From the sequence record PQ036202: 64,000 bases of DNA; one strand, 5' to 3'. The notes beneath the pieces were generated by a model. That model saw nothing but the letters and a program-made list of their open reading frames with translations, did not search any database and was not told where the DNA came from. The position numbers were made by a program, and so were the translations under genes. The stretch comes from Escherichia phage GEP101. Position 1 is the first letter of the stretch, and each line of letters opens with the position of its first letter. Shown here in pieces: positions 5,530 through 36,358 of this stretch.

Positions 5530-5766
5530 TCACTCAATAACAGTAGTGTGTGATTGACCATTTTTGCCATAGCTATAAGATGTTGTTGTTTGAGAGTTTG
5601 GACATCTGACAACAACAATATCTCTGCTTATGGCATCACCATGTAACTTATAGACTTTGCAATCTTGCATCTCTGGTGGGAGGCTATAAGAAGCATTTTT
5701 ATCTTCATAAGAAGGGTTGCACCCAGCTAGAAAAATAACACCAAGTGCAATTACTGCTTTCCACAT
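5530..5766 (-). CDS. putative lipoprotein
   Basis: Start moved to Met9 (ATG 5764-5766 with AGGAGAGG RBS); signal peptide ending in lipobox LAGC. Confidence 0.5.
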   Translation of the reverse strand: MWKAVIALGVIFLAGCNPSYEDKNASYSLPPEMQDCKVYKLHGDAISRDIVVVRCPNSQTTTSYSYGKNGQSHTTVIE

Positions 5767-5952
5767 AATACCTCTCCTATTACTGTTCACGATGTTCTAC
5801 TTCTCTGTACGTTCGTCGATAGTATATAATAAGCTGTGCTAACTCGTTGCTTTTAACATCTGAACGTAGCAGTTGCCAATCAAAACCTTTACCAACTCTT
5901 CCATATAAGCTAAATAATTTTACTTTGCGTTTCATTTTGGTACTCCCAATAC

Positions 5953-6180
5953 TCAGAGGCCAATGCTAATACGTTCACCCTTGAGGACTCCTGTACGGTC
6001 TCTTGCAATCTTACCGTCAACAATAAGGATATGCGCAGACTTTAAAGATTCACTATTAAAACCTTTTACGAACTTACTAGGCATCACCACAATAAGCATC
6101 TCTTGAATCAACTCTGGAGTATAGCAATTGTCGTGAAGTTGCTGAATAACGTCTGCAAGTGTCATTTTTGATGTCTCCAA
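5953..6180 (-). CDS. hypothetical protein
   Basis: 75-aa ORF. Confidence 0.4.
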   Translation of the reverse strand: METSKMTLADVIQQLHDNCYTPELIQEMLIVVMPSKFVKGFNSESLKSAHILIVDGKIARDRTGVLKGERISIGL

Positions 6181-19003: not shown

Positions 19004-21238
19004 ATGATTAAGACAATTAAAAAATCAAACGGTACAGTAGTAAGCTTTGACCCAGAAAGACTGAATAAGTGGGCATCATGGGCAGACAAGCGTGGAATTA
19101 TCTGGTCAGAAGTCACTATGGAAGCTATGAAACGTGTCTATGAGGGTTGCACTACAAAAGAGATGCACCAAGCCATGATTGATGTTTGTGTTGATAAACA
19201 AACTCAAGAGTACTCAGACATGGCTGGACGACTACTTCTGGGTATTATCTACAAAGAAGCCTTTGGAGGCTTTACTAAGGTTCCTACGCTGGTCACCTTC
19301 GTTAAAAATATGGAGAGAGCAGGGCTTTGGGAGAAGATGGACTATTCTCAGGAAGAGCTTGAATACCTGCAAGGTTATATCGTGCACTCAAAAGATATCT
19401 CTTACGGTTATGCAGTCCTGAAACAGTTCAGAGACAAGTATGGTATCCGTGATATTAAAACGGGAAGACTTTTTGAGTCACCACAGTTTATGTTTATGGG
19501 TATGGCTATGAAAGCCTTTGAGAAGCAACCAAAGCACCGTAGGCTGCAAGATGTGATTAAGCTGTACACTTACCTATCTGACCTGAAGATTAACGCTCCT
19601 ACGCCTTATCTGAATGGTTTAAGAGCTACTAAATCAGGTTATGCGTCATGCTGTTTGATTAAGGCAAATGATACCGCTGAATCTCTAGGTATTGCTGCAA
19701 AGGTTGCCTATGACATGACCACAAAGCAAGCTGGTATTGGGATGCTGATGGAGACTCGCACTATTGGTGATGGTATCCGTCAAAACACTATTGAGCACAT
19801 GGGTAAACTACCTTATTACAAGCTTGTACGTTCATCTGTAGAGGCAAACAAACAGAAGAGTCGTGGTGGTTCAGCTAATAACTTCTACACTGCTCTAGAC
19901 CCGCAGATTGAAGATTTACTGCGTTTGAAGCACCCGACAACGGTTCCTTCGAAACGTATTAATGAGATGGACTACTCATTCGGCACAAATGATTATTTCT
20001 GGCAGTGTGTTCAATATGATACAGACTGGTTGCTATTCTCTTACAAGGATGCACCAAAACTTTATGACATGTTCTACACAGCATCTGCTGATGAGTTTGC
20101 TATGGCAGTTGGTCACGCAGTCCATTCAGGTGTTAAGCACAGACGGGTGAAGGCTCGTGAAATTGCTAAACTGTTTATCCAGCAGCGTTATGCAACAGGT
20201 CGTGTGTATCCATTCTTCACGAATAATGCAAACACACATACACCATTTAAAGAACCTTTGAAGATGTCAAATCTTTGTATGGAAATTGTGTTGCCAGTGT
20301 ACGGCTTTGAGAAAGAGACAGACCTTTACAGAGATGATGCTGTGAAAGAGGATGGTGAGGTAGCTCTTTGCTTCCTAGCTAGTTTGGTTGCAGGGAGAAT
20401 TTCAGAAGATGAATACGCTGACGTTGCTTATTATGCTCTTGCAATGGTTGACTCCGTTATCGACCTTATGGATTATCCGTATCCGTCGATGTGCAACCAT
20501 GTTCAGAAGCGTCGTTCTGTTGGGATTGGCCTTACAAATGTGGCTCATTACCTTGCGAAAAACTACGTGAACTACTCTTCAAGAGCAGGTAAGACAAAGC
20601 TTCATGAGCTTGCTGAAATGCACTCTTACTACTTACACGAAGCTTCTTTAAGACTTGCTAAAGAACGTGGTGTGCCTGAGTATATGCAGTTCACTAAGTA
20701 TCCTGAAGGTTGGGTTCCTCCGAAAACAGCTAACAGGAAGATTGATGAGAAGCATGATGCAAAACTTCGTTATGATTGGGATGACTTAGCACAACGTATT
20801 AAAGAAAATGGTGGAATCCGTAACTCTGTATTAGAAGCTTACATGCCTAATGAGAGTTCTTCACTGGCAACTAATACGACAAATGGCTTGTATCCAATTC
20901 GTGACTTTATTTTAACTAAAAAGTCTGCAACTGGTAACGTACTGTTTATTGTTCCAGATTACGAAGAGTTGAAGTATGTCTATGAAATTGCTTGGGATAT
21001 TGACACCTTTGACCTGATTGATTGTTATGCAATTGTTCAAAAGTTCACTGGTCAAGCTATCTCTTCAGATTTCTATGTTGACTATGCAAAGTCTAAGAAG
21101 GTATCATTGGCTCAAGCTTTGAAGTACATGATTTATGCCAACTCAGTAGGTATGAAAACCATGTACTACCTTAACAGTCGCATTGGTGTAGGTAAATCTG
21201 CACTGCAAGATGCTTATTGCGAGGGTTGTGGTGTTTAG
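19004..21238 (+). CDS. nrdA: ribonucleotide reductase class Ia large subunit
   Basis: N-terminal ATP-cone-like segment, SNLCMEI active-site region; 744 aa. Confidence 0.9.
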   Translation: MIKTIKKSNGTVVSFDPERLNKWASWADKRGIIWSEVTMEAMKRVYEGCTTKEMHQAMIDVCVDKQTQEYSDMAGRLLLGIIYKEAFGGFTKVPTLVTFVKNMERAGLWEKMDYSQEELEYLQGYIVHSKDISYGYAVLKQFRDKYGIRDIKTGRLFESPQFMFMGMAMKAFEKQPKHRRLQDVIKLYTYLSDLKINAPTPYLNGLRATKSGYASCCLIKANDTAESLGIAAKVAYDMTTKQAGIGMLMETRTIGDGIRQNTIEHMGKLPYYKLVRSSVEANKQKSRGGSANNFYTALDPQIEDLLRLKHPTTVPSKRINEMDYSFGTNDYFWQCVQYDTDWLLFSYKDAPKLYDMFYTASADEFAMAVGHAVHSGVKHRRVKAREIAKLFIQQRYATGRVYPFFTNNANTHTPFKEPLKMSNLCMEIVLPVYGFEKETDLYRDDAVKEDGEVALCFLASLVAGRISEDEYADVAYYALAMVDSVIDLMDYPYPSMCNHVQKRRSVGIGLTNVAHYLAKNYVNYSSRAGKTKLHELAEMHSYYLHEASLRLAKERGVPEYMQFTKYPEGWVPPKTANRKIDEKHDAKLRYDWDDLAQRIKENGGIRNSVLEAYMPNESSSLATNTTNGLYPIRDFILTKKSATGNVLFIVPDYEELKYVYEIAWDIDTFDLIDCYAIVQKFTGQAISSDFYVDYAKSKKVSLAQALKYMIYANSVGMKTMYYLNSRIGVGKSALQDAYCEGCGV

Positions 21239-21293
21239 TTTTAATAACTATGAGGGTCGTAAAAGACCCTCTAAAATTAACTTTGGAGAGACC

Positions 21294-21551
21294 ATGAGAG
21301 ATTTAATAGAAAAACATGAACGACCTATATACTTGCTCCACAAGCCTCGAAAAACGATGTACTATGTGAGTAGCACAGATATGATGATAAAACAAAAGGA
21401 TGACTCATGGGTTGCTGGTATCTCTTACATCTCTACAGCAGATGGTAAAATCTACGCAAGACCTTATGAGATGTTCAACAAAGAAAATTGGGAAGTTTTA
21501 GACAGAAAACAAGCCTCAGAAATGATAAAGAAAGGAGAAATCACGCTATGA
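21294..21551 (+). CDS. hypothetical protein
   Basis: Track ORF trimmed to Met with GGAGAG RBS (ATG 21294); stop overlaps nrdB start (ATGA). Confidence 0.35.
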   Translation: MRDLIEKHERPIYLLHKPRKTMYYVSSTDMMIKQKDDSWVAGISYISTADGKIYARPYEMFNKENWEVLDRKQASEMIKKGEITL

Positions 21552-22621
21552 TTAACCAGCACCCAATCTTTTTAGGTGGTGAGAGAAAAACTTTTGACTC
21601 ACTTAATAAACACTACCCAAAAATCTTTGAACTTTATAAACAACAAAAAGCACAAGACTGGTCAGAAGATGAGTTCCCTTTTGAACAATCACGTCTTGAT
21701 TTTGAGAGTGTTCCAGCATCTATGTCAGGTGTAATGCTTGAGATTCTTAAGTGGCAATGGGAAGCAGATACCCAAGTTGCTAAGAGCTTGGCATTTGCCT
21801 TTGCACCATTTATCTCTGATGACATCTATGCAACTGCAATTATGAAGCAGTCTGAGATTGAAAACCTACATGCTCTTACTTACTCGGAGATTGTCAGACA
21901 ATGTATTAAAAACCCTGAAACAATCTTAGATGAGATTAACCAGAATGTTGCTGTACAAGACCGATTAAAAACTGTGAATCGTGTTCTTGAAGAATTACTG
22001 GATGAAGGGATAAACTATCGACTGAGTTATGTGCGTGACTCGCTTCTGGACAAAGACCCTTTACACTTCCATAAAGTGATTCTGAAAGGTCTATTTGCAG
22101 TGACTGCACTTGAAGGTATTTCTTTTATGGCATCCTTTGCATGTACTTTTGCACTTGATGCTCAAGATAAATTTCAAGGTATTGCTCAAGCTGTACAGAA
22201 AATTATGCTTGACGAAATCCTTCACACTAAAATTGATATTGAAGTTTTAAAAGAAACTTTAAGAGATGATGAGTGGCAAAAAGCTTTCCAACAAATTCTT
22301 CCAGAGATTAAAGTAATCTTAGATGAAGTAGTTGAAAGTGAAGAAAAATGGTCGTATTATATCTTCTCCGAAGGACGTGCTGTAGTTGGTTTAAATACAA
22401 AACTTCTTCATGAGTGGGTTTACTATAATGCTGCCCCACTGTATGATATGTTTAGCATTCCCAGAGATTTTGTAGCTCCTAAAGAACCACCTTTGAAGTA
22501 TATGATTAAGAAGATGGAAATTGATAAAGAGCAGAATGCTAATCAGGAGCAACAGAACGGTGCGTATTTATTAAATACTGTTGTAGACGATTTGAATAGT
22601 GGATTTTTAGAGGTTCCTTAA
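21548..22621 (+). CDS. nrdB: ribonucleotide reductase class Ia small subunit
   Basis: Position after nrdA, size, ferritin-like helical composition; start set at MINQHP (ATG 21548). Confidence 0.8.
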   Translation: MINQHPIFLGGERKTFDSLNKHYPKIFELYKQQKAQDWSEDEFPFEQSRLDFESVPASMSGVMLEILKWQWEADTQVAKSLAFAFAPFISDDIYATAIMKQSEIENLHALTYSEIVRQCIKNPETILDEINQNVAVQDRLKTVNRVLEELLDEGINYRLSYVRDSLLDKDPLHFHKVILKGLFAVTALEGISFMASFACTFALDAQDKFQGIAQAVQKIMLDEILHTKIDIEVLKETLRDDEWQKAFQQILPEIKVILDEVVESEEKWSYYIFSEGRAVVGLNTKLLHEWVYYNAAPLYDMFSIPRDFVAPKEPPLKYMIKKMEIDKEQNANQEQQNGAYLLNTVVDDLNSGFLEVP

Positions 22622-22863
22622 TGACTTATGTAATTTACTCCAAAACTGGATGCCCTCAGTGTGAGACTGCAAAGAATTTTGCAAAAGCTCGTGGTATTGA
22701 CCATGTTGTGAGAATGTTAGGGCAGGACTATGAGCTATCGGAACTAATGGACATTGCACAGATGCCAGTTCGTCAGATGCCATTCATCATGAAAACTGAT
22801 GGACAAAACCTAAAACCTGTTGGGACGCTACAGAATTTTATGGCAGAGGTGAATAATGCTTAA
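22621..22863 (+). CDS. glutaredoxin-like protein (NrdH-like)
   Basis: CPQC redox motif near N-terminus; 80 aa; adjacent to nrdB. Confidence 0.65.
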   Translation: MTYVIYSKTGCPQCETAKNFAKARGIDHVVRMLGQDYELSELMDIAQMPVRQMPFIMKTDGQNLKPVGTLQNFMAEVNNA

Positions 22864-23062
22864 ACGCCTTTGGGAAGGCTTGGTTATTGATGCACCAGCT
22901 ATTGTGATTGGTATGCTTGTTGTTAACCTATTTACTGATTTTGAACAAGGTTCATTGTTTGGAGCCATGTTACTATGGGTTATCTTTGAAATATTAGAAA
23001 TACAGTTAGGCATCACTGAAAAACTAAGAGAACTCTTTTCGAAGTTTTCTAAAAAGATTTAA
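22856..23062 (+). CDS. small membrane protein (hypothetical)
   Basis: Two hydrophobic helices; 68 aa. Confidence 0.35.
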   Translation: MLKRLWEGLVIDAPAIVIGMLVVNLFTDFEQGSLFGAMLLWVIFEILEIQLGITEKLRELFSKFSKKI

Positions 23063-23068
23063 AATGAA

Positions 23069-23093
23069 AGGGTCTCTTCGGAGACCTTTTTAT
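23069..23093 (+). terminator. rho-independent terminator (UUCG-loop type)
   Basis: AGGTCTC-TTCG-GAGACCT then TTTTT. Confidence 0.65.
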
Positions 23094-23110
23094 CATGTAA
23101 AGGGGCAATA

Positions 23111-25255
23111 ATGAACAAAGTACAAATTATTAAAAAGAATGGCTCACTTGAAGAACCGGATATCAAAAAAGTTTTAGCAGCAGTAACTAAGTCAGCTAAC
23201 AGGGTTGGATATAAAGAACTTCCACCAGATGTTACCCAAGCTCTTGAGTCAGCATTTATGAGGATTCTGGTAAAGTCCACTAAGCAGAATAACTTACTTA
23301 TCTCAGTAAATGATATTCACAGCATTGTTGAGGGTGCTTTGGCAGAAGTCAATCACGAGATTTATGAATCTTATTCAACATACAGAAATTACCGTAAAGA
23401 AGTCGCTCAAAATTGGGATGAGCTTTACCAAAAGACCAGAGACACACTCTTCTTAGGTGACCGTGAAAATGCTAACTTTGACAGTAGTTTAATTTCTACA
23501 AAAGGTTCAATCATTCGTGGTTACTTGACTAAAGAAATCTTTAAACAGTACCATTTAACACCAGAGGAACTTGAAGCCATTGAAAAAGGGTTTATCTATA
23601 TCCACGATTTAAGAGACCTGATTTTTGGTGGTATCAACTGTTGCCTGTTTGACATTGGTAAAGTACTGAAAGGTGGCTTTGAAATGTCTGGCATTGAATA
23701 CTGTGAACCGAAGTCTGTACTGTCAGCCTTACAAGTTATCGGTGATGTAGTTCTTTCAGCAACTGCACAGCAATTTGGTGGATTTACTTTAGCAGAGATT
23801 GATAAGGTGCTTGTACCGTATGCTAAGAAGTCTCTACGCTATCATGCTGAGAAAGCAGCATCTTACGGTATTCCTAAAGAACATTACCATAACTATGTCA
23901 TGGAGCAGCTACAGATTGAATTAACTCAAGGCTTCCAGTCACTAGAGATGAAACTAAATACTGTACCTTGTAGCCGTGGTGATTTTGCATTCACAACTTT
24001 AACATTTGGTTTACTTGACTCAGACATGTCTAATGAAGACAACCGGCTACAATACATGATTGCAAACACCATTCTTGATGTTCGCATGAATGGACAAGGT
24101 AAGAGTAAGAAGCCTGTTGTATTCCCTAAACTGGTTTATATTCATGACCAGAAGAGACACGATGAGAATATCTGTCAAGGCCAACTGTACAGTAAAGCTA
24201 TTGAGTGTTGCTCTAAAGCAATGTATCCAGATTTCTTAAGCGTATCTGGTCATGGTGCTGTAGCAGAGGCTTTTGAGCGTTCTGGCAAGGTAATTTCACC
24301 GATGGGTTGCAGAGCTTTCTTATCCCCATATCTTAACGAGAATGGAGAAGAGTTCTACGTTGGTCGTGCTAATATTGGTGCTGTATCTTTGAACTTGCCA
24401 ATGATTTACCAGTATTCTAAAGAGAGTGGTTTAGATTTCTGGAAAGAGCTTGATAAGTACCTAGAGATGATTCGCAGCTTCCACAAGAAACGCTACGAAA
24501 TGATTGCTAATATGCCAGCAAGTTCTAACCCTCTTGCATTCACACAAGGTGGTCTGTACAAAGGGACTAAGAAACCTACTGACAAGGTTGGCTGGGATAT
24601 TGTGAAGTCTTTCACAGCTTCTTTTGGGGTTACTGCGCTTGATGAGTTATCTGTTCTTGCTGAGGGTAAACGACTTCATGAAGTTGGAAGCTGTAGTTTT
24701 GCATACGATGTTCTAGCATACATTAACATGAAAACTGAAGAGTTTAAGGATGAAGATGGCTTCTTGTATGCAGTCTATGGCACTCCAGCAGAATCACTTT
24801 GTGGGACTCAGCTAAAACAGTTCAGAGAAATGTTTGGTGTTATCAAAGGCGTTTCTGACAAGGAATACTTTACAAACAGTTTCCATATGAATGTTGCAGC
24901 AGACATCTCACCATTTGAGAAGCAGGACTTAGAAGAGCCATTCTTCCATATCTGTAGAGGTGGCAGAATCCAGTATGTAAGGGTAGCTAACCCAGAAAAC
25001 TTAACAGCACTTAAAAGTTGTATTACAAGAGGCATGTTGAAAGGCTTTTATCAGGGACTTAACTTTGACTTAGCAATCTGTGAACATTGTGGTAACAGAC
25101 CAAAGGCTGATGTTGAAGAATGTGAAGTTTGCCATTCACATGATATCTCTGTGATTAACAGGGTGTGCGGGTACTTGGGGTGGACTAAGATTAAAGGCGA
25201 ATCCCGAATGAATGATGCAAAAATTGCTGAGATTCGTGACAGGATTTCTATGTAA
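23111..25255 (+). CDS. nrdD: anaerobic ribonucleoside-triphosphate reductase
   Basis: C-terminal glycyl-radical motif RVCGY, Cys cluster CEHCG...CEVCH; 714 aa. Confidence 0.9.
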   Translation: MNKVQIIKKNGSLEEPDIKKVLAAVTKSANRVGYKELPPDVTQALESAFMRILVKSTKQNNLLISVNDIHSIVEGALAEVNHEIYESYSTYRNYRKEVAQNWDELYQKTRDTLFLGDRENANFDSSLISTKGSIIRGYLTKEIFKQYHLTPEELEAIEKGFIYIHDLRDLIFGGINCCLFDIGKVLKGGFEMSGIEYCEPKSVLSALQVIGDVVLSATAQQFGGFTLAEIDKVLVPYAKKSLRYHAEKAASYGIPKEHYHNYVMEQLQIELTQGFQSLEMKLNTVPCSRGDFAFTTLTFGLLDSDMSNEDNRLQYMIANTILDVRMNGQGKSKKPVVFPKLVYIHDQKRHDENICQGQLYSKAIECCSKAMYPDFLSVSGHGAVAEAFERSGKVISPMGCRAFLSPYLNENGEEFYVGRANIGAVSLNLPMIYQYSKESGLDFWKELDKYLEMIRSFHKKRYEMIANMPASSNPLAFTQGGLYKGTKKPTDKVGWDIVKSFTASFGVTALDELSVLAEGKRLHEVGSCSFAYDVLAYINMKTEEFKDEDGFLYAVYGTPAESLCGTQLKQFREMFGVIKGVSDKEYFTNSFHMNVAADISPFEKQDLEEPFFHICRGGRIQYVRVANPENLTALKSCITRGMLKGFYQGLNFDLAICEHCGNRPKADVEECEVCHSHDISVINRVCGYLGWTKIKGESRMNDAKIAEIRDRISM

Positions 25256-25408
25256 AACTTGACAAGGTGGTGTGAGTCTTGATAGGCTTACATCACCTTT
25301 TTTATTGGATGTTAGACATGGCAGAGAATATTATTGGGTTGTTCATAGGTTCTGTTTTACTAGGGTTCTTTTAGGACTTTCTTATTGTGAATTGAGAGAT
25401 AAGTTAAA

Positions 25409-25609
25409 ATGTTTAAAATATCAAAAACGTTGATATACATACTCCACATTCTAATCTTCTTCTTTGGGGTTAGTGTTATGGTATGGGGTTTTTCAGACCC
25501 ACAATGGAGTTTATCATATCATGGGCAAATGGATTTATGGTCATGCTTCAAACCATTTTTAGGGTTAGCTATAGCATTCAGTGCATTACCAACTAAGGTG
25601 AAATTATGA
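25409..25609 (+). CDS. small membrane protein (hypothetical)
   Basis: 66 aa, hydrophobic. Confidence 0.35.
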   Translation: MFKISKTLIYILHILIFFFGVSVMVWGFSDPQWSLSYHGQMDLWSCFKPFLGLAIAFSALPTKVKL

Positions 25610-26001
25610 TTAAGTTGAACAAAAAACAGCTAGAGTGGATTAAAGATTACGCCTCAGAGTGTGGCTCTTGCGAAAAGAATCACGTAAGATATTCAACATT
25701 CCATATAACCTTCACATTGTACATCAGTAACAGTGTTCTAAGTGATTCCGTAGAAGACGGTGTAGTATTGCCTAATGAGTTACTTGATAAACTAGCTGTA
25801 GTCACTGGAACTTGGTCTGAAGAAGATGGTCACGAACTCTCTGATGATGTTGTCTTCTGCACTCTTGAAAACATTATGAATCCAGAGTACATTATGCTAA
25901 TGACGTGTGCACAAGACTGTGTACCATTACAAAACTTCATTAAAGAACACTGTGAAGAATTTATTACTAAACAGGTTCCTTGTCAGGTAGTGTTTGAATA
26001 A
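25606..26001 (+). CDS. hypothetical protein
   Basis: 131-aa ORF. Confidence 0.4.
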   Translation: MIKLNKKQLEWIKDYASECGSCEKNHVRYSTFHITFTLYISNSVLSDSVEDGVVLPNELLDKLAVVTGTWSEEDGHELSDDVVFCTLENIMNPEYIMLMTCAQDCVPLQNFIKEHCEEFITKQVPCQVVFE

Positions 26002-26036
26002 GTAAAACAATTAAATAATATTGGTGAGGTAACTAG

Positions 26037-26522
26037 ATGAATTACATGGAGATTCGACCATTTGACACAGCTAATGGTGAAGGGGTTCGGGTAAGCCTCT
26101 TCGTAGCTGGCTGTAAACATCACTGTGAAGGCTGCTTTAACAGGGAGTCTTGGAAGTTTAATGCTGGTAAAGAGTTTACTTATGCAAACCTCTACGGCAT
26201 CATTAAATTAATGGATGATGAGGCCATCAGTGGGTTGTCAATACTCGGTGGAGAACCTCTTGATGACAGAAACATTCAAGAAGTCACCAACATATGTAAA
26301 CGTATTAAAACTGTTTACCCAGAAAAGTCTATCTGGCTCTGGACAGGTTTTCAGTTACACGAAAAAATTCATCTAGATGTGATGAAATATGTTGACGTGG
26401 TGATTGATGGTAAGTATGATTCTTCTAAACCAACAGTTAAACCATATCGTGGTTCTGATAACCAAAACCTCTGGAGAAAAGAGTATGGATGGCAAGGCGA
26501 TTGTCAATGGCGAGCAGAGTAA
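26037..26522 (+). CDS. nrdG: anaerobic RNR activating enzyme (radical SAM)
   Basis: CxxxCxxC cluster CKHHCEGC near N-terminus; 161 aa. Confidence 0.85.
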   Translation: MNYMEIRPFDTANGEGVRVSLFVAGCKHHCEGCFNRESWKFNAGKEFTYANLYGIIKLMDDEAISGLSILGGEPLDDRNIQEVTNICKRIKTVYPEKSIWLWTGFQLHEKIHLDVMKYVDVVIDGKYDSSKPTVKPYRGSDNQNLWRKEYGWQGDCQWRAE

Positions 26523-26559
26523 ATCTCGTCGTAAAATTGGTTACGGGAAAGGTGAGATA

Positions 26560-26862
26560 ATGGTTATCTCTTTTAACAGTGCTTTATTAGGTACTTATAA
26601 GGTTAAGACTGAACTCCTTGATGAGTGGAAAAAGTATACAAACTCACTCTTCGGTAATGTTGGAATGGAAGCCTTAGCAGAGATTGAGAAGGCTGGAACA
26701 TTCGAAGTTGTTGGTAAAGGCCACTTTACAATGTTCTACAAAACAAATTTAAACGTTGGTGACAGTATTGTTGGTGTCACTGAAGAAGAACTTAAAACAT
26801 TTTGTGAAAAGATTGAGAGAGATGCGAAATGGGAATCTGGAACAGTTTTAAATCAAAAATAA
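26560..26862 (+). CDS. hypothetical protein
   Basis: Track ORF trimmed to Met with AAAGGTGAG RBS (ATG 26560). Confidence 0.4.
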   Translation: MVISFNSALLGTYKVKTELLDEWKKYTNSLFGNVGMEALAEIEKAGTFEVVGKGHFTMFYKTNLNVGDSIVGVTEEELKTFCEKIERDAKWESGTVLNQK

Positions 26863-27086
26863 AAGCAGCACTGGCATCACTAGGTATGCTCACTGGTGTT
26901 GACGTTACTCATCTCATGCAGAACTTCAAGATGGATGAGAAGCTGGCTAATGAGATTATGAAAAGTATCTATGTAGGCCGTGGTAAAGGTGGTAAGAAAC
27001 AAGCCCACCGTCCGTCTGGTGCAGCAGCTATTAAACGAGCAGCTAAGAAAGCTCGTAACCGTAAACGTAACAAGAAGGCTAAATAA
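26829..27086 (+). CDS. small protein with highly basic C-terminus
   Basis: C-terminal KRAAKKARNRKRNKKAK. Confidence 0.35.
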   Translation: MGIWNSFKSKIKAALASLGMLTGVDVTHLMQNFKMDEKLANEIMKSIYVGRGKGGKKQAHRPSGAAAIKRAAKKARNRKRNKKAK

Positions 27087-27088
27087 TC

Positions 27089-27409
27089 ATGAGCAAAGTT
27101 TATAACACTCGTAAATTACAGATTTTCGTACTGTGCCAGTTTATGGCTAGAGAGTATAACTGCTACTATTGTGGTACAGGGTTCATTAGTGATAATGACG
27201 GCTCATATCTACCATTCAAAGAGGCTGTAAAACTCTTCAATGAAGAGAAAAGCTCTAAGAAAGATATTGAAAAGGTTAAGCTAACCTACAGCAAGAAAGA
27301 TAAGAAGATTATCTGCCTAGATAACTTTGTAAAAGTTACTGGAGAAGCAAAAGAGTTTATGGATGAGAGTGAGATTTCATTCACAAGCATCTTGAAAGTA
27401 GCTCAGTAA
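27089..27409 (+). CDS. hypothetical protein
   Basis: 106-aa ORF; terminator downstream. Confidence 0.4.
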   Translation: MSKVYNTRKLQIFVLCQFMAREYNCYYCGTGFISDNDGSYLPFKEAVKLFNEEKSSKKDIEKVKLTYSKKDKKIICLDNFVKVTGEAKEFMDESEISFTSILKVAQ

Positions 27410-27420
27410 ACAGATACTAT

Positions 27421-27450
27421 AAGGGGACTGTAAAGGTTCCCTTTTTATTT
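27421..27450 (+). terminator. rho-independent terminator
   Basis: GGGGA...TCCC hairpin then TTTTTATTTT. Confidence 0.55.
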
Positions 27451-27598
27451 TGGAGATAATATGTATCTGTCAAATCTGAAACGTTCTGCTGCAATGTCTG
27501 TCCTAAGACTGAGCTTTGAAGAACGTCAAGAGTTCATTGATTCCCACCAATACGACCCTTCTAACTCGAATTACTGATTAGAAAGATTCAAAATGATA

Positions 27599-27628
27599 TT
27601 GACGGACTCGTCAAAGATTGGCTATAGT
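27599..27628 (+). promoter_or_regulatory. sigma70-like promoter upstream of methyltransferase
   Basis: TTGACG - 18 bp - TATAGT. Confidence 0.45.
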
Positions 27629-27661
27629 TAGCTCATTGGAACGAAACACAACGGAGTAAAA

Positions 27662-28383
27662 ATGATGGATATTAAAACAGAGAATGCGTGGTTAATGTTT
27701 GGTGACTGTCTGGAGCGCATGAAAGAAATACCGGACGGTAGCGTGGATATGATTTTGTGTGATTTGCCGTATGGTACGACGCGGAATAAATGGGATTTAG
27801 TAATACCTTTCGATAAACTTTGGGCAGAGTATAAGCGGGTGTGTAGCGGCGCCGTGGTTCTCACTGCCGCGCAGCCCTTCACCTCCGCCCTTATAATGAG
27901 TAACCAAAAGGATTTCAAGTATACGTGGGTGTGGGATAAGGCTACAGCACCGGTTTTCTTAATGCTAAAAAGCAGCCCCTTCGCCAGACAGAAGATATTG
28001 TCGTTTTCGGTAAGGTTAAGACTTACAATCCAATAATGGAAGTTAGGGGAAAGCCACGCAAGAAAGGAGGGCATAATAAGCCAGGAGGCTCTGATAACTA
28101 CGGCCGGTTCGGTGACGCAGTTTCTGTCAATAACGAATATTACCCTACCAATCTGTTGCGCATATCCAACGCGGTGCGCAAGGGTAGGCTGCACCCTACA
28201 CAGAAGCCAGTGGCCTTGATGGAATACCTTATCAAGACGTACACCAACGAAGGGGATGTGGTTCTTGATAACTGCATGGGCAGCGGTACAACTGGTGTGG
28301 CATGTCGCAACACAAACCGTAAATTCATCGGTATTGAAATGGACCCGACTTATTACGGCATTGCGTGTGGGAGAATTTTATGA
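27662..28383 (+). pseudogene. DNA methyltransferase (N6A/N4C beta-class), interrupted by a frameshift
   Basis: N-terminal ORF carries DLPYG (DPPY-type), C-terminal ORF carries HPTQKP and CMGSGTTG (SAM motif); frames differ by 1 nt near 27940-27955; locally GC-rich. Confidence 0.65.
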
Positions 28384-28556
28384 CACCAACACTCCTCGAA
28401 TGGCAACGTAAGCACGGTATCACGGCTGAGGCTCTGGCTGACCTTGTGACAAAACCAGTACCAGATGGCATAGGTAAATGTTCAGTGATTTATCACGTTG
28501 TAGACCCTGCAAAATGCAAATCTGCAATGGCAGTAACAAACGTAACTTTTGATTGA
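28365..28556 (+). CDS. hypothetical small protein
   Basis: 63-aa ORF. Confidence 0.3.
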   Translation: MWENFMTPTLLEWQRKHGITAEALADLVTKPVPDGIGKCSVIYHVVDPAKCKSAMAVTNVTFD

Positions 28557-28570
28557 GAGAGAGAGAAACT

Positions 28571-29452
28571 ATGAAAACATCTATCCGTGTTACAGTTCAT
28601 TCACCAACTAAAGGGACTCATGAAGAAGAGTTTAACATCATCCAATTCCCTTCTGGTGAGATTGGTGGACACTTTTCACCAGAGTTTGTTGATTTTACTA
28701 CCTATGCAGCATCATCTATCAACAATGTGATTATGATTGTAAAAGGCTATGATAAAGATATATTGTTTGCTGTGGCACTTGCTAAAGAGGCAGTGGACAA
28801 CTTAGTACCTCATAAGTTTGCTATGAAGACTGTTATCTTTTACTATTTACCAAATGCACGTTATGACCGTCACATGTTTAAAGGTGATGCAGCAGCTTTG
28901 AAAGTGTTTGCACAACAGGTTAATGCAATGGGTTTTGATGCAGTCTGTGCAGTTGACCCTCACAGTTATGTGCCAGATAACCTGTTTAACTGCTTCCAGA
29001 GCATTCCTCAAAAGGAAATTGCAGTCCACTATGCAAATGACCCACTGGTTGATTACTTAGTAGCCCCAGATGCAGGTGCTTCTAAGAAGATTGCAGAAAC
29101 TGCTAAAGAAGTGGATAAACCATACATCACAATGTCTAAAGTACGTAACCTTAAGACTGGTGAAATTACTGGTATGCGAATCCTTGATGATGTTGATTTG
29201 ACCGATAAAACTGTTATGATTCTCGATGATATCTGTGATGGTGGTCGAACCTTCATAGAAGCAGCTAAACATCTTCGTGAAGCAGGTGCAAAACGTGTGG
29301 AACTCTATGTAACTCATGGTATCTTCTCTAAAGGTGTTGAAAACTTACTTGACAATGGTATTGACCATATCTACACTACAAACTCTTTAGGGGAAGCTAA
29401 AGACCGTGGCTTAACACATTATGCCCAAGTTACTGTAGCAAACCTTGATTAA
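28571..29452 (+). CDS. prs: ribose-phosphate pyrophosphokinase family protein (Prs-like; possible ADP-ribose pyrophosphokinase)
   Basis: PRPP-binding motif ILDDICDGGRT, VDPHS; start set at ATG 28571 with GAGAGAG RBS. Confidence 0.8.
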   Translation: MKTSIRVTVHSPTKGTHEEEFNIIQFPSGEIGGHFSPEFVDFTTYAASSINNVIMIVKGYDKDILFAVALAKEAVDNLVPHKFAMKTVIFYYLPNARYDRHMFKGDAAALKVFAQQVNAMGFDAVCAVDPHSYVPDNLFNCFQSIPQKEIAVHYANDPLVDYLVAPDAGASKKIAETAKEVDKPYITMSKVRNLKTGEITGMRILDDVDLTDKTVMILDDICDGGRTFIEAAKHLREAGAKRVELYVTHGIFSKGVENLLDNGIDHIYTTNSLGEAKDRGLTHYAQVTVANLD

Positions 29453-29497
29453 AACTTTATAGGGGCTTTTAAGCCCCATTTTGAGAGAGATTAAAAG

Positions 29498-31279
29498 ATG
29501 ACTAAATCACTTTATGCAGTGCCAGCAGGTTTAAACGCAGATGCTTACAAGGCATCACATATATATCAGTATCCAGATGCCACACAGTACCTTATGCTGA
29601 ACCTGACACCACGTAGTGATAAATGGTTTAACAGTCCTTTAGCCATTGACGGTGTAGTTGCTTTTGGTATTCAACGTTTTGTTAAAGATTATTTAATAGA
29701 CCACTGGAATGCCACCTTCTTTGAACGTGACAAAAAAGAAGCAATTGACGAAATCTTAGAAGTCATGAACGGTGTTCTGGGTAAAGATGCTATTGGTCGA
29801 GAACACTGGGAAGCACTACATGACTTAGGTTATCTACCAGTTGAAGTGTACGCTGTAGAAGAAGGCACAGTTGTACCTATGCGTGTACCAATGATTGTCT
29901 TCCAGAACACTGTTTCAGGTTTCCATTGGGTAGCTGGGTATCTGGAAGATGCTTTCTCTGCTGAGATTTGGAAGGCTTGTACCATTGCAACTATTGCATT
30001 GCACTACAAACGTATCTGTAAGAAGTGGTCTGACCTTACTTGTGACAATGACTTGCATTTGCCTTATCAGTGCCATGACTTTGCTATGCGTGGTATGTCT
30101 GGCTTTACTGATGACGCATTTAACGCTGTAGGCCACTTAACCAGCTTTAAAGGAACTGATAGCTTCCCTGCTGTATATACAGCTAAACGAATCTATGGAC
30201 AGTCCTACCCAATCTCTGATATTGGCAGCTCTGTACCAGCCACTGAACACTCTGTAATGTGTGCAAACATTGCTTGGGAAGGTGGTAATGAGTTGATTGA
30301 AGAAGAAAGACGCTTTAAAGGTGAGTTACAAACCTTCCGTCGTTTCTTAACAGAAACTTACCCAACTGGTATTGCAAGTGTTGTTTCAGACACTTATAAT
30401 TTCTGGAGAACTGTATCAGAAATCTTACCAGCACTTCGTAAAGAGATTATGGAACGTGATGGTAAACTGGTAATTCGTCCTGACTCTGGAGACCCTGTAC
30501 ATATTGTCACAGGTTATAAAGCAATCCACTTAGAGTGTGCTAAAAAGGCTTATTACGAACACCTAAGCAAGCTGGAAGCCAGCGACACAAAGTTGAATGC
30601 TGTTCTGAACATGAATCTTGAAGACATTCACTATATTATGGCTGGGTGGTTACGTACAGAAGGCTATGAAATGGTGGTTGACAGAGAAGACTTTGAAGTA
30701 GCTGATACAGTGCTTCTGAAAGATGCCTACATCAATGGCTCTGCAAACGTTGTAACACGTCCTGTAGCAGAGATTGATGGGGCTATTAAGACCCTGTATA
30801 ACATCTTTGGAGGGACTATCAACTCTAAAGGCTTTAAGGTACTGGATGAGCACATTGGCCTTATCTATGGTGACTCTATCACGTTGGAACGTGCAAACGA
30901 AATCCTGAAGCGTTTGTATGAAATGGGTTTTGCAAGCTCTAACGTAGTGTTTGGTGTAGGTTCTTACACTTACCAGTACATGACTCGTGACACCTTTGCA
31001 TTTGCTGTCAAAGCAACTCTTGCAAGCATTGGTGGTAAAGAGATTATGCTTGCAAAAGACCCTAAAACAGATAGCGGTGTTAAGAAGTCTGCTTTTGGTG
31101 GTGTAGCACCTATGTGGGATGGTGATAAGCTGAAAGCTGTAGATGGCTATGGATTCCAGAGCTTTGCAGATGTGCTTGAACATCCAGCTTGTGCTTTACG
31201 TTTAATCTTTAGTGACTCTGAGCAGTTCGGTTACACAACTCTTGGTGATATTCGAAATAATATTGACAAGCAGCTTTAA
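29498..31279 (+). CDS. nadV: nicotinamide phosphoribosyltransferase family protein (NadV/NAMPT-like)
   Basis: NAMPT-like motifs DAYKASHIYQYP, HDFAMRG, SFKGTDS, VPATEHSVM, VVSDTYN, IRPDSGDP; 593 aa. Confidence 0.8.
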   Translation: MTKSLYAVPAGLNADAYKASHIYQYPDATQYLMLNLTPRSDKWFNSPLAIDGVVAFGIQRFVKDYLIDHWNATFFERDKKEAIDEILEVMNGVLGKDAIGREHWEALHDLGYLPVEVYAVEEGTVVPMRVPMIVFQNTVSGFHWVAGYLEDAFSAEIWKACTIATIALHYKRICKKWSDLTCDNDLHLPYQCHDFAMRGMSGFTDDAFNAVGHLTSFKGTDSFPAVYTAKRIYGQSYPISDIGSSVPATEHSVMCANIAWEGGNELIEEERRFKGELQTFRRFLTETYPTGIASVVSDTYNFWRTVSEILPALRKEIMERDGKLVIRPDSGDPVHIVTGYKAIHLECAKKAYYEHLSKLEASDTKLNAVLNMNLEDIHYIMAGWLRTEGYEMVVDREDFEVADTVLLKDAYINGSANVVTRPVAEIDGAIKTLYNIFGGTINSKGFKVLDEHIGLIYGDSITLERANEILKRLYEMGFASSNVVFGVGSYTYQYMTRDTFAFAVKATLASIGGKEIMLAKDPKTDSGVKKSAFGGVAPMWDGDKLKAVDGYGFQSFADVLEHPACALRLIFSDSEQFGYTTLGDIRNNIDKQL

Positions 31280-35458: not shown

Positions 35459-36358
35459 ATGGCTAAAGCAGAACTTGATAAATACTACACACCAGATGAA
35501 GTAATAAGAGTGTGTGAATATAAGCTACAAAAGGTCTTTAAAGGCTCTATTTCGTGCATTATAGACCCCTGTGCAGGTGACGGAAGATGGAAAGATTCTT
35601 TTAAGAGGGTTTGTCAAGATGTTGTGCTATACGACATCGAACCAGACTCTGAGGATGTTAGTACAAGAGACTTCCTGAAAGATGACTTAGAGATTCCAGA
35701 TAAACCTTTTGCGATTGTTACCAACCCTCCATTTGGTAAGGCAAATAGTCTGTCTACAAAGTTCTTTAACAAGGCTGCTACAATGAATCCAGACTACATT
35801 TGCTTCTTAGTTCCTATTAACTTTGGGAAGAAGAATCTTAGCAGACTTAGCAGAGAGTACACCTGCATTGACGAAGTAGAACTACCTAACCTTCATTTTG
35901 AAAGGATTGATGGAGTTACCTACTCAGCAAAAGAGTCGTCACTACGCTGTAACTTCCAAATCTGGAAGAGACAAAAGCGGACAGATGAAACTTGTAAGAT
36001 TGTTCCTGTGATAGTTGATGGTGTAAGAGTCTATAAGCGTGAGAAATTCACACTATACAGGCCACCATGTCACAAGATTGATGGTAAAGAACAGCCAGTA
36101 GGTGTTTTAGGCAAACTGGATGGAAAAGATTTGTTCACGATTATTACACATGGTCGTAAGGCTGGTACTGTGAAGGTCTTTGAACCAGATAAAGATAAGG
36201 TGTCTGTGAAACAATTTATCGAGCCTCACATAGAAGGGCTTTACTCAGCAATCAAACAGGATTGGTTCGAAGATTTAAGAGATGGTTTTGCGCTGAGTTA
36301 TGCAGGTTCGATAAATTCACAGGAAATCATAGAAACCATAGAAAAACATTTGCATTAA
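35459..36358 (+). CDS. DNA N6-adenine methyltransferase (gamma-class-like)
   Basis: SAM motif IIDPCAGDG followed by catalytic VTNPPFG. Confidence 0.6.
   Translation: MAKAELDKYYTPDEVIRVCEYKLQKVFKGSISCIIDPCAGDGRWKDSFKRVCQDVVLYDIEPDSEDVSTRDFLKDDLEIPDKPFAIVTNPPFGKANSLSTKFFNKAATMNPDYICFLVPINFGKKNLSRLSREYTCIDEVELPNLHFERIDGVTYSAKESSLRCNFQIWKRQKRTDETCKIVPVIVDGVRVYKREKFTLYRPPCHKIDGKEQPVGVLGKLDGKDLFTIITHGRKAGTVKVFEPDKDKVSVKQFIEPHIEGLYSAIKQDWFEDLRDGFALSYAGSINSQEIIETIEKHLH

Follow-up and report, generated by a model that had tools for sequence, protein, structure and literature searches.

A frameshifted beta-class DNA methyltransferase gene in a mosaic accessory cassette of the Felixounavirus Escherichia phage GEP101

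We analysed a 64,000-nt stretch of DNA from Escherichia phage GEP101 (PQ036202), referred to below as the window. It comes from a Felix O1-like myovirus (genus Felixounavirus), and a 24-kb stretch of it around the gene described here is 93-96% identical to Shigella phage Z31, the Salmonella phages SEP1 and S19cd, and many other phages. The gene order at the locus is nrdG, DUF7390, methyltransferase, prs, NAMPT, rIIA, rIIB. Here, positions 27662-28383 hold a beta-class N6A/N4C DNA methyltransferase gene (Pfam PF01555), which is split into two plus-strand ORFs that lie in different frames. ORF1 (27662-28036, +) encodes 124 aa, of which residues 1-94 are a genuine methyltransferase N-terminus with the motif IV sequence DLPYG (27761-27775, +). 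A GGAG ribosome-binding site, read from the sequence, is located 5 nt 5' of the ATG at 27662 (27653-27656, +). From 27944, ORF1 continues as an out-of-frame tail to a TAA at 28034-28036 (+). The C-terminal 145 codons of the methyltransferase, from S96 to the stop, are found in the -1 frame (27946-28383, +). This frame has a stop immediately 5' of the break (27937-27939), and the next ATG, GTG or TTG is the ATG at 28036, the first available start, at which ORF2 begins (28036-28383, +; 115 aa). ORF2 carries HPTQKP (28192-28209, +) and the AdoMet motif CMGSGTTG (28273-28296, +). A first-pass annotation, made from the sequence alone, had described DLPYG in the first ORF and the other two motifs in the second, and the coordinates agree with this division.

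The frame break was located by DNA alignment with intact alleles. One A is absent at 27944/27945 (+), where the window reads GGCTACAGC and phage S19cd and the contigs L005 and L006 read GGCTAACAGC; the 1-nt frame change that had been proposed near 27940-27955 is thereby borne out. Addition of one A to the window gene restores a 240-aa protein, which differs from the S19cd protein in 5 residues. Two substitutions are peculiar to the window, S46L and N221K. Neither clearly points to decay, and K is the residue that the family most often has at position 221. The only homopolymer of at least 5 nt in the gene is an A5 run (27967-27971, +), 21-23 nt downstream of the break. The break is outside this run, which codes for the conserved Lys-Lys pair in the family motif LNAKKQP.

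The surroundings of the gene have a clear structure. Upstream, the DUF7390 gene (27089-27409, assigned by Pfam) is followed by a terminator-like hairpin with a T-tail (27421-27443, +), which is a pattern match from a consensus scan. Downstream of the hairpin we found a 38-codon stump of a resident 171-aa ORF (27461-27577, +), with 3 differences from the first 38 aa of that ORF in SP116. Homology with the methyltransferase-less phages SP116 and dune ends at ~27579 and returns at ~28452. Between these points lies an inserted cassette of 872 bp (27580-28451), comprising a promoter-like site, the methyltransferase gene and the 5' part of a small downstream ORF, and it replaced ~560 bp. The promoter-like site is a candidate sigma-70-like promoter, TTGACG-18 nt-TATAGT (27599-27628, +), with 10/12 matches; a consensus scan of the region found 4 such sites against 4.1 expected by chance. 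The candidate is conserved in S19cd and SP4 and is absent from methyltransferase-less genomes. After the methyltransferase gene, the consensus scan found no terminator, and an Rfam scan of 20000-30000 found no RNA element.

The small ORF at the downstream end of the cassette is chimeric (28380-28556, +; 58 aa) and overlaps the methyltransferase stop (ATGA). Its N-terminal 23 aa are borne by the cassette and its C-terminal 35 aa are the end of a resident 92-aa ORF; in S19cd this ORF is annotated as a Felix01p233-like hypothetical protein. Two small differences among phages were observed on either side of the cassette. In S19cd, a 10-nt deletion (L001 ~1560; window 27459-27468) removes the ATG of the 38-codon stump, which fits the view that the stump is non-functional debris. 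Upstream of the prs start, in its ribosome-binding region, a (GA)n tract (28547-28560) varies in length among phages. The window reads GAGAGAGAGAGA, the tract of S19cd is 3 nt shorter, and those of SP4, SP116 and dune are 1-3 nt shorter.

We then compared the slot across related phages. About 260 of the 265 related phage records match the flanks only and carry the 171-aa and 92-aa hypothetical ORFs at this position, and the methyltransferase cassette is present in only ~4 of the 265 related Felixounavirus records. Patchy presence at a fixed slot, together with a deviating base composition, fits an accessory cassette of the 'moron' type. No cognate endonuclease gene was found at the locus, where the neighbours are the DUF7390 gene, the 38-aa stump, the 58-aa ORF and prs. 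Since no endonuclease gene adjoins it, the methyltransferase is an orphan and not part of a complete restriction-modification system.

Base composition sets the gene apart from the rest of the window. Its GC content is 47.1% vs 38.9% for the window, which makes it the GC maximum of the whole stretch; a second comparison gave 47.0% vs 39.3% (z 3.1). When GC was computed in sliding 722-bp segments, 6 of the 1266 segments reached the value of the gene, and all six overlap it. GC3 of the gene is 53.1%, compared to a mean of 36.3% for the long ORFs of the window (z = 2.5). The first-pass annotation had called the gene GC-richer than its surroundings, and the windowed GC and GC3 both confirm this.

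The gene is a mosaic. At its two ends (the first ~100 nt and the last ~120 nt) it is 92-98% identical to the allele found in SP4, SEP1 and SP2, three Salmonella phages from one laboratory. These phages carry the gene at the same locus with the same promoter region, and there too it is annotated as two ORFs (SP4_12/SP4_13). Their allele is a different one: its central ~450 nt are divergent (30-70% identity), and its GC content is lower (44.0%). The core of the window gene (nt ~100-330) is instead 92-100% identical to methyltransferase genes on two ~48-kb phage contigs, L089 and L091, whose sampled loci have a GC content of 47.2-47.6%; the homology is restricted to 27671-28343. The proteins encoded there, P0004 (L089) and P0002 (L091), share 83-85% identity with the window protein, and the GC of their genes matches that of their loci. 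Both genes are intact. They adjoin a ParB-like gene, have different N- and C-termini, and stand in a context unrelated to that of the window.

Judged from these alignments, the identity of the core to genes of 47%-GC phages supports an exchange of the gene's centre with a pool of 47%-GC enterobacterial phages, in line with the earlier suggestion of acquisition from a higher-GC source. A donor cassette common to the window and the 48-kb phages was also considered and was rejected, since the homology ends within the ORF and the 57-aa ORFs that follow it are unrelated. Among 5,426 complete E. coli genomes, we found only 115-nt matches of 73% identity, and thus no bacterial or prophage donor there.

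To place the protein in its family, we used the PF01555 (N6_N4_Mtase) profile, which has a cut-off of 26.7 bits. The intact S19cd allele scored 111.3 bits and ORF2 of the window scored 87.5 bits, so the beta-class assignment of the first-pass annotation holds. ORF1 by itself stayed below the 26.7-bit cut-off of this profile. The repaired protein shows the permuted motif order, with DLPY at residues 34-37, HPTQKP at 178-183 and MGSGTT at 206-211. An AlphaFold model of the intact allele (pLDDT 82.4, pTM 0.81) was matched by Foldseek with a probability of 1.0 to M.BceJIV, CcrM, M1.HpyAVI, M.MboIIA, M.RsrI and the N4-cytosine enzyme M.PvuII, with E-values from 1e-13 to 4e-16. A sequence search recovered the same solved beta-class enzymes. 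M.BceJIV (8URK), CcrM (6PBD), M1.HpyAVI (5HFJ), M.MboIIA (1G60) and M.RsrI (1EG2) share the fold of the phage protein (TM 0.6-0.7) and its permuted order, with motif IV (D-L-P-Y) N-terminal and the AdoMet motif C-terminal, but they are only 22-28% identical to it. In addition, CcrM has a C-terminal domain, whereas the phage methyltransferase is without one.

The S19cd record carries an 'M.BabI' note, which prompted us to consider GANTC/CcrM specificity. We rejected it: the CcrM equivalog profile (NCBIfam NF050803) gave 78.8 bits vs a cut-off of 830, and only the C-terminal AdoMet region was aligned. Because the protein is not a CcrM equivalog, its target sequence is not transferable from CcrM, and the 'M.BabI' note is unreliable on the target. 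Selection for gene loss by Mrr-type restriction was likewise rejected, as unsupported.

The deletion leaves a conserved part of this fold out of both products. Residues 94-124 (31 residues) are encoded by neither ORF. In an alignment of 39 homologues, this segment holds six invariant residues (G98, N101, A102, P106, F116 and Y122) and six nearly invariant ones, and in the AlphaFold model it forms a conserved loop (95-109) and a core beta-strand (110-117). ORF1 keeps the catalytic motif IV without the AdoMet motif and ORF2 the reverse, so that the 1-nt deletion leaves the window gene with no uninterrupted polypeptide that contains all core motifs. With the six invariant positions and the core strand lost, the product of the window gene is predicted from sequence and model to be non-functional. 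A functional enzyme assembled from the two ORF products is very unlikely, since residues 94-124 are in neither of them and motif IV and the AdoMet motif are on separate pieces.

Intact versions of the gene are found in close relatives. S19cd (MZ150758.1) has the same allele in the same cassette at the same locus. Its gene (70354-71076) is an uninterrupted 723-bp ORF for a 240-aa 'modification methylase' (QVW09179.1), whereas the window gene is without one A; nucleotide identity is 97.9% over 27590-28390, and 5/240 residues differ from the repaired window protein. L005 (DRR831822) and L006 (SRR18693200), Logan assembly contigs from separate sequencing runs, hold an intact allele at the same Felixounavirus locus with 99% protein identity. 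The gene is uninterrupted in the cluster members P0122 and P0123 too. If the missing base is set aside, no difference separates the window from S19cd, L005 and L006 over the central ~450 nt (100% identity). The best match over the locus is 96.5%.

The broken allele of the window was unique among all collections searched. Among ~15 billion proteins we found no exact copy of the products of ORF1 or ORF2, of NAMPT, or of a second methyltransferase-like protein encoded in the window; in all, exact look-ups of three proteins from the neighbourhood gave no match. The exact pattern of the deleted version had zero matches in viral_contigs. In metagenome_contigs and genome_contigs both versions (GCT[A]ACAGC) had zero matches, so neither allele is recorded there. 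More generally, no interruption was seen in the best 120 full-length homologues or in 80 IMG/VR loci, the IMG/VR relatives being only 52-62% identical and too distant to inform on this allele.

Other parts of the window also vary among these phages. The second methyltransferase-like protein is encoded by an uninterrupted 299-aa ORF (35459-36358) whose motifs, a DPCAGDG resembling motif I and the motif IV NPPF, follow the gamma-class order. Its Pfam N6_Mtase match is marginal (E = 2e-4, 21.1 bits vs a cut-off of 20.4), with no single stretch passing the threshold; there is no NCBIfam match, and its GC content of 39.1% is ordinary. This ORF is present in the window, L005 and SEP1 and absent from S19cd and L006. 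A further case is nrdD, for the anaerobic ribonucleotide reductase, which in the window is a continuous 714-aa ORF (23111-25255). S19cd, L005 and L006 have ~315 nt more in this gene, which divide it into ORFs of 399 aa and 284 aa, and in L005 an Rfam group I intron (RF00028) was identified at 5708-6089 (56.4 bits vs a gathering score of 50, E = 2e-13). The window therefore carries the intron-less allele of nrdD.

The methyltransferase gene is broken in other lineages as well. SP4, SEP1 and SP2 have an extra A in the equivalent A-run (GCCAAAAAAACAACC; L002 (SP4) ~2050-2070). This insertion lies ~25 nt downstream of the break in the window and is an independent frameshift. A third broken allele, P0125, shifts frame just after LNAKKQP, as judged from its protein sequence. 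Intact and split versions of the gene are thus already annotated in GenBank phage records. We also observed many truncated N-terminal fragments of the family, several of them on 28-46 kb contigs; a number of the fragments end at or just after the LNAKK(Q)P poly-A motif (P0127, P0131, P0143, P0180, P0202 and P0203). The equivalent site in the window is 27959-27976, and the break of the window is upstream of the A-run, not within it. These truncated relatives were sampled by an ORF1 search, which is biased to fragments of query length and includes truncations at contig ends, and in which sequencing errors and mutations are inseparable; because of this bias, we make no statistical claim on the clustering of breaks. 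The observations suggest that the LNAKK poly-A run is a family-wide indel hotspot or a site of recurrent homopolymer sequencing error.

Taken together, we consider it probable that the locus holds an accessory, horizontally acquired orphan beta-class methyltransferase gene, which is dispensable and has suffered a very recent loss-of-function mutation. According to this explanation, the slot between the DUF7390 gene and prs lost two small resident genes to the 872-bp cassette, which has its own promoter-like site. The methyltransferase gene shares its ends with the SP4-type Felixounavirus allele and its GC-rich core with methyltransferase genes of unrelated ~48-kb enterobacterial phages. The missing A at 27944/27945 would then lead to translation of ~30-31 out-of-frame codons up to the stop at 28036, and the only downstream start, the ATG at 28036, would yield a C-terminal piece without the catalytic motif IV.

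The main alternative is that the missing A is a sequencing or assembly artefact of the deposited sequence and that the phage has an intact 723-bp gene. To weigh the two, we audited reading frames across the window by tblastn, using all ORFs of at least 80 aa from S19cd (whole genome), L005 and L006. About 110 ORFs gave a single full-length match, and the methyltransferase gene was the only annotated CDS with a frame-breaking indel. Besides the methyltransferase gene and its antisense shadows, the frame switches in the audit were an indel near 44.7 kb, located 5' of a start codon, and a spurious ORF over the tRNA cluster at 60.5-60.9 kb. Partial matches at ~6.0-6.4 kb and 40.0-40.7 kb are ~200-290 nt apart and are not simple frameshifts. 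The tRNA cluster itself comprises 23 tRNA genes on the plus strand (59230-63798), as is typical of Felix O1-like phages, and explains the spurious signal.

Since only one annotated CDS in the 64 kb is frame-broken relative to its relatives, the assembly is not indel-prone, and this favours a real mutation. Further arguments point the same way. The break falls at an AA dinucleotide and not in a long homopolymer. The gene makes up 1.1% of the window, so that a random error would more likely have fallen elsewhere, whereas a true frameshift persists only where a gene is dispensable, as this one is. Independent breaks of this gene are known from SP4, SEP1 and SP2 and from P0125. On the other hand, identity to intact alleles over the central ~450 nt in all but one base is what an error would give, S46L and N221K give no clear indication of decay, and the deletion was seen in the window alone among the collections searched. 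An isolated error is therefore possible, though we regard it as rather unlikely, and a real, very recent mutation is the favoured and probable reading. The first-pass annotation had offered a decaying anti-restriction gene as one possibility, beside a phase-variable switch and a sequencing error. Inactivation agrees with our prediction; 'decaying' is overstated, because the identity of the central ~450 nt to intact alleles means that any inactivation is very recent.

Several broken alleles of independent origin end at or near the LNAKK motif, and for this reason we entertained a more specific idea, namely that the W-D-K...L-N-A-K-K-Q-P poly-A stretch is a family-wide contingency locus for self-methylation, with the deletion in the window as one 'off' state. 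If so, frequent indels would turn self-methylation on and off, and phage populations could spread their risk over hosts whose restriction is methylation-sensitive and hosts whose restriction is methylation-dependent (Type IV). The evidence supports this idea no further than homopolymer sequencing errors and ordinary mutation would, and we hold it to be very improbable.

The first-pass annotation had named a phase-variable switch. In such a model, reversible indels would trade protection against methylation-sensitive restriction for exposure to methylation-dependent (Type IV) restriction. The nearby independent frameshifts, namely the added A in the A-run of SP4, SEP1 and SP2 and the shift just after it in P0125, are compatible with such a switch, as are the several truncated family members whose ends fall at the LNAKK poly-A motif. 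This survey of truncated forms is, however, subject to the biases described above, and the best full-length homologues and IMG/VR loci show no interruption. More directly, the break in the window is a change from AA to A within GCTAACAGC, in a plain dinucleotide where intact relatives have no repeat and where no simple-sequence repeat was found in the window. Such a change is not readily reversible, and the local run is only A5. Phase variation at this site is thus not supported and appears highly improbable.

The least probable explanation, which we consider hardly credible, is that the two ORFs are joined by a programmed -1 ribosomal frameshift or by transcriptional slippage, or that their products form a split enzyme. 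The shift needed is indeed -1, the A5 run lies shortly downstream of the break, and the overlap TAATG of the ORF1 stop and the ORF2 start (28034-28038) could permit termination-reinitiation. However, the frame overlap (27940-28036) contains no X_XXY_YYZ heptamer, in accordance with the earlier remark that no obvious slippery site is visible, and even with a shift at the A5 run 8 residues would be replaced, among them the invariant G98, N101 and A102. TAATG is a by-product of the P-I-M-E codons in the intact frame, and no Shine-Dalgarno sequence was found within 5-12 nt of the ATG at 28036. A split enzyme would be without strand 110-117, which is in neither fragment. The break is also not conserved, as S19cd, L005, L006, P0122 and P0123 are uninterrupted with identical flanks. 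As a slippery heptamer and a repeat are both absent and relatives do not share the break, recoding is not supported.

The role of the intact enzyme can be proposed from its family and from phage orphans that have been tested. It would methylate the phage DNA at a short target and shield it from matching host restriction enzymes, so that evasion of such restriction is its most likely function by analogy. In lactococcal 936-type phages, the orphan methyltransferases M.Phi93I/M.Phi145I and M.Phi93DAM protect DNA from HphI and DpnII (Murphy et al. 2014, PMC4190342). The 936-type orphans are likewise accessory and patchily distributed, occur in lytic phages and have no partner endonuclease (PMC4190342). 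They differ in their hosts and genome positions. Lactococcal phage homologues of the window gene were matched by DNA similarity, and these are not necessarily the tested M.Phi enzymes.

The split gene of the window is a case of ordinary recent gene loss or a single sequence error, and not a new mechanism. A frameshifted pseudogene is the appropriate annotation, or a corrected gene if reads show the A, in place of two methyltransferase genes. The relevance of the finding is mainly for annotation and for phage-therapy bookkeeping. Beyond this, the locus is a clean small case of within-gene mosaicism, in which the centre of a methyltransferase gene was exchanged between unrelated phage lineages. 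Felixounaviruses are reportedly unusually sensitive to restriction. If the deletion is true, this phage would be without the protective methylation predicted for S19cd, and its loss could narrow the host range on strains with matching restriction.
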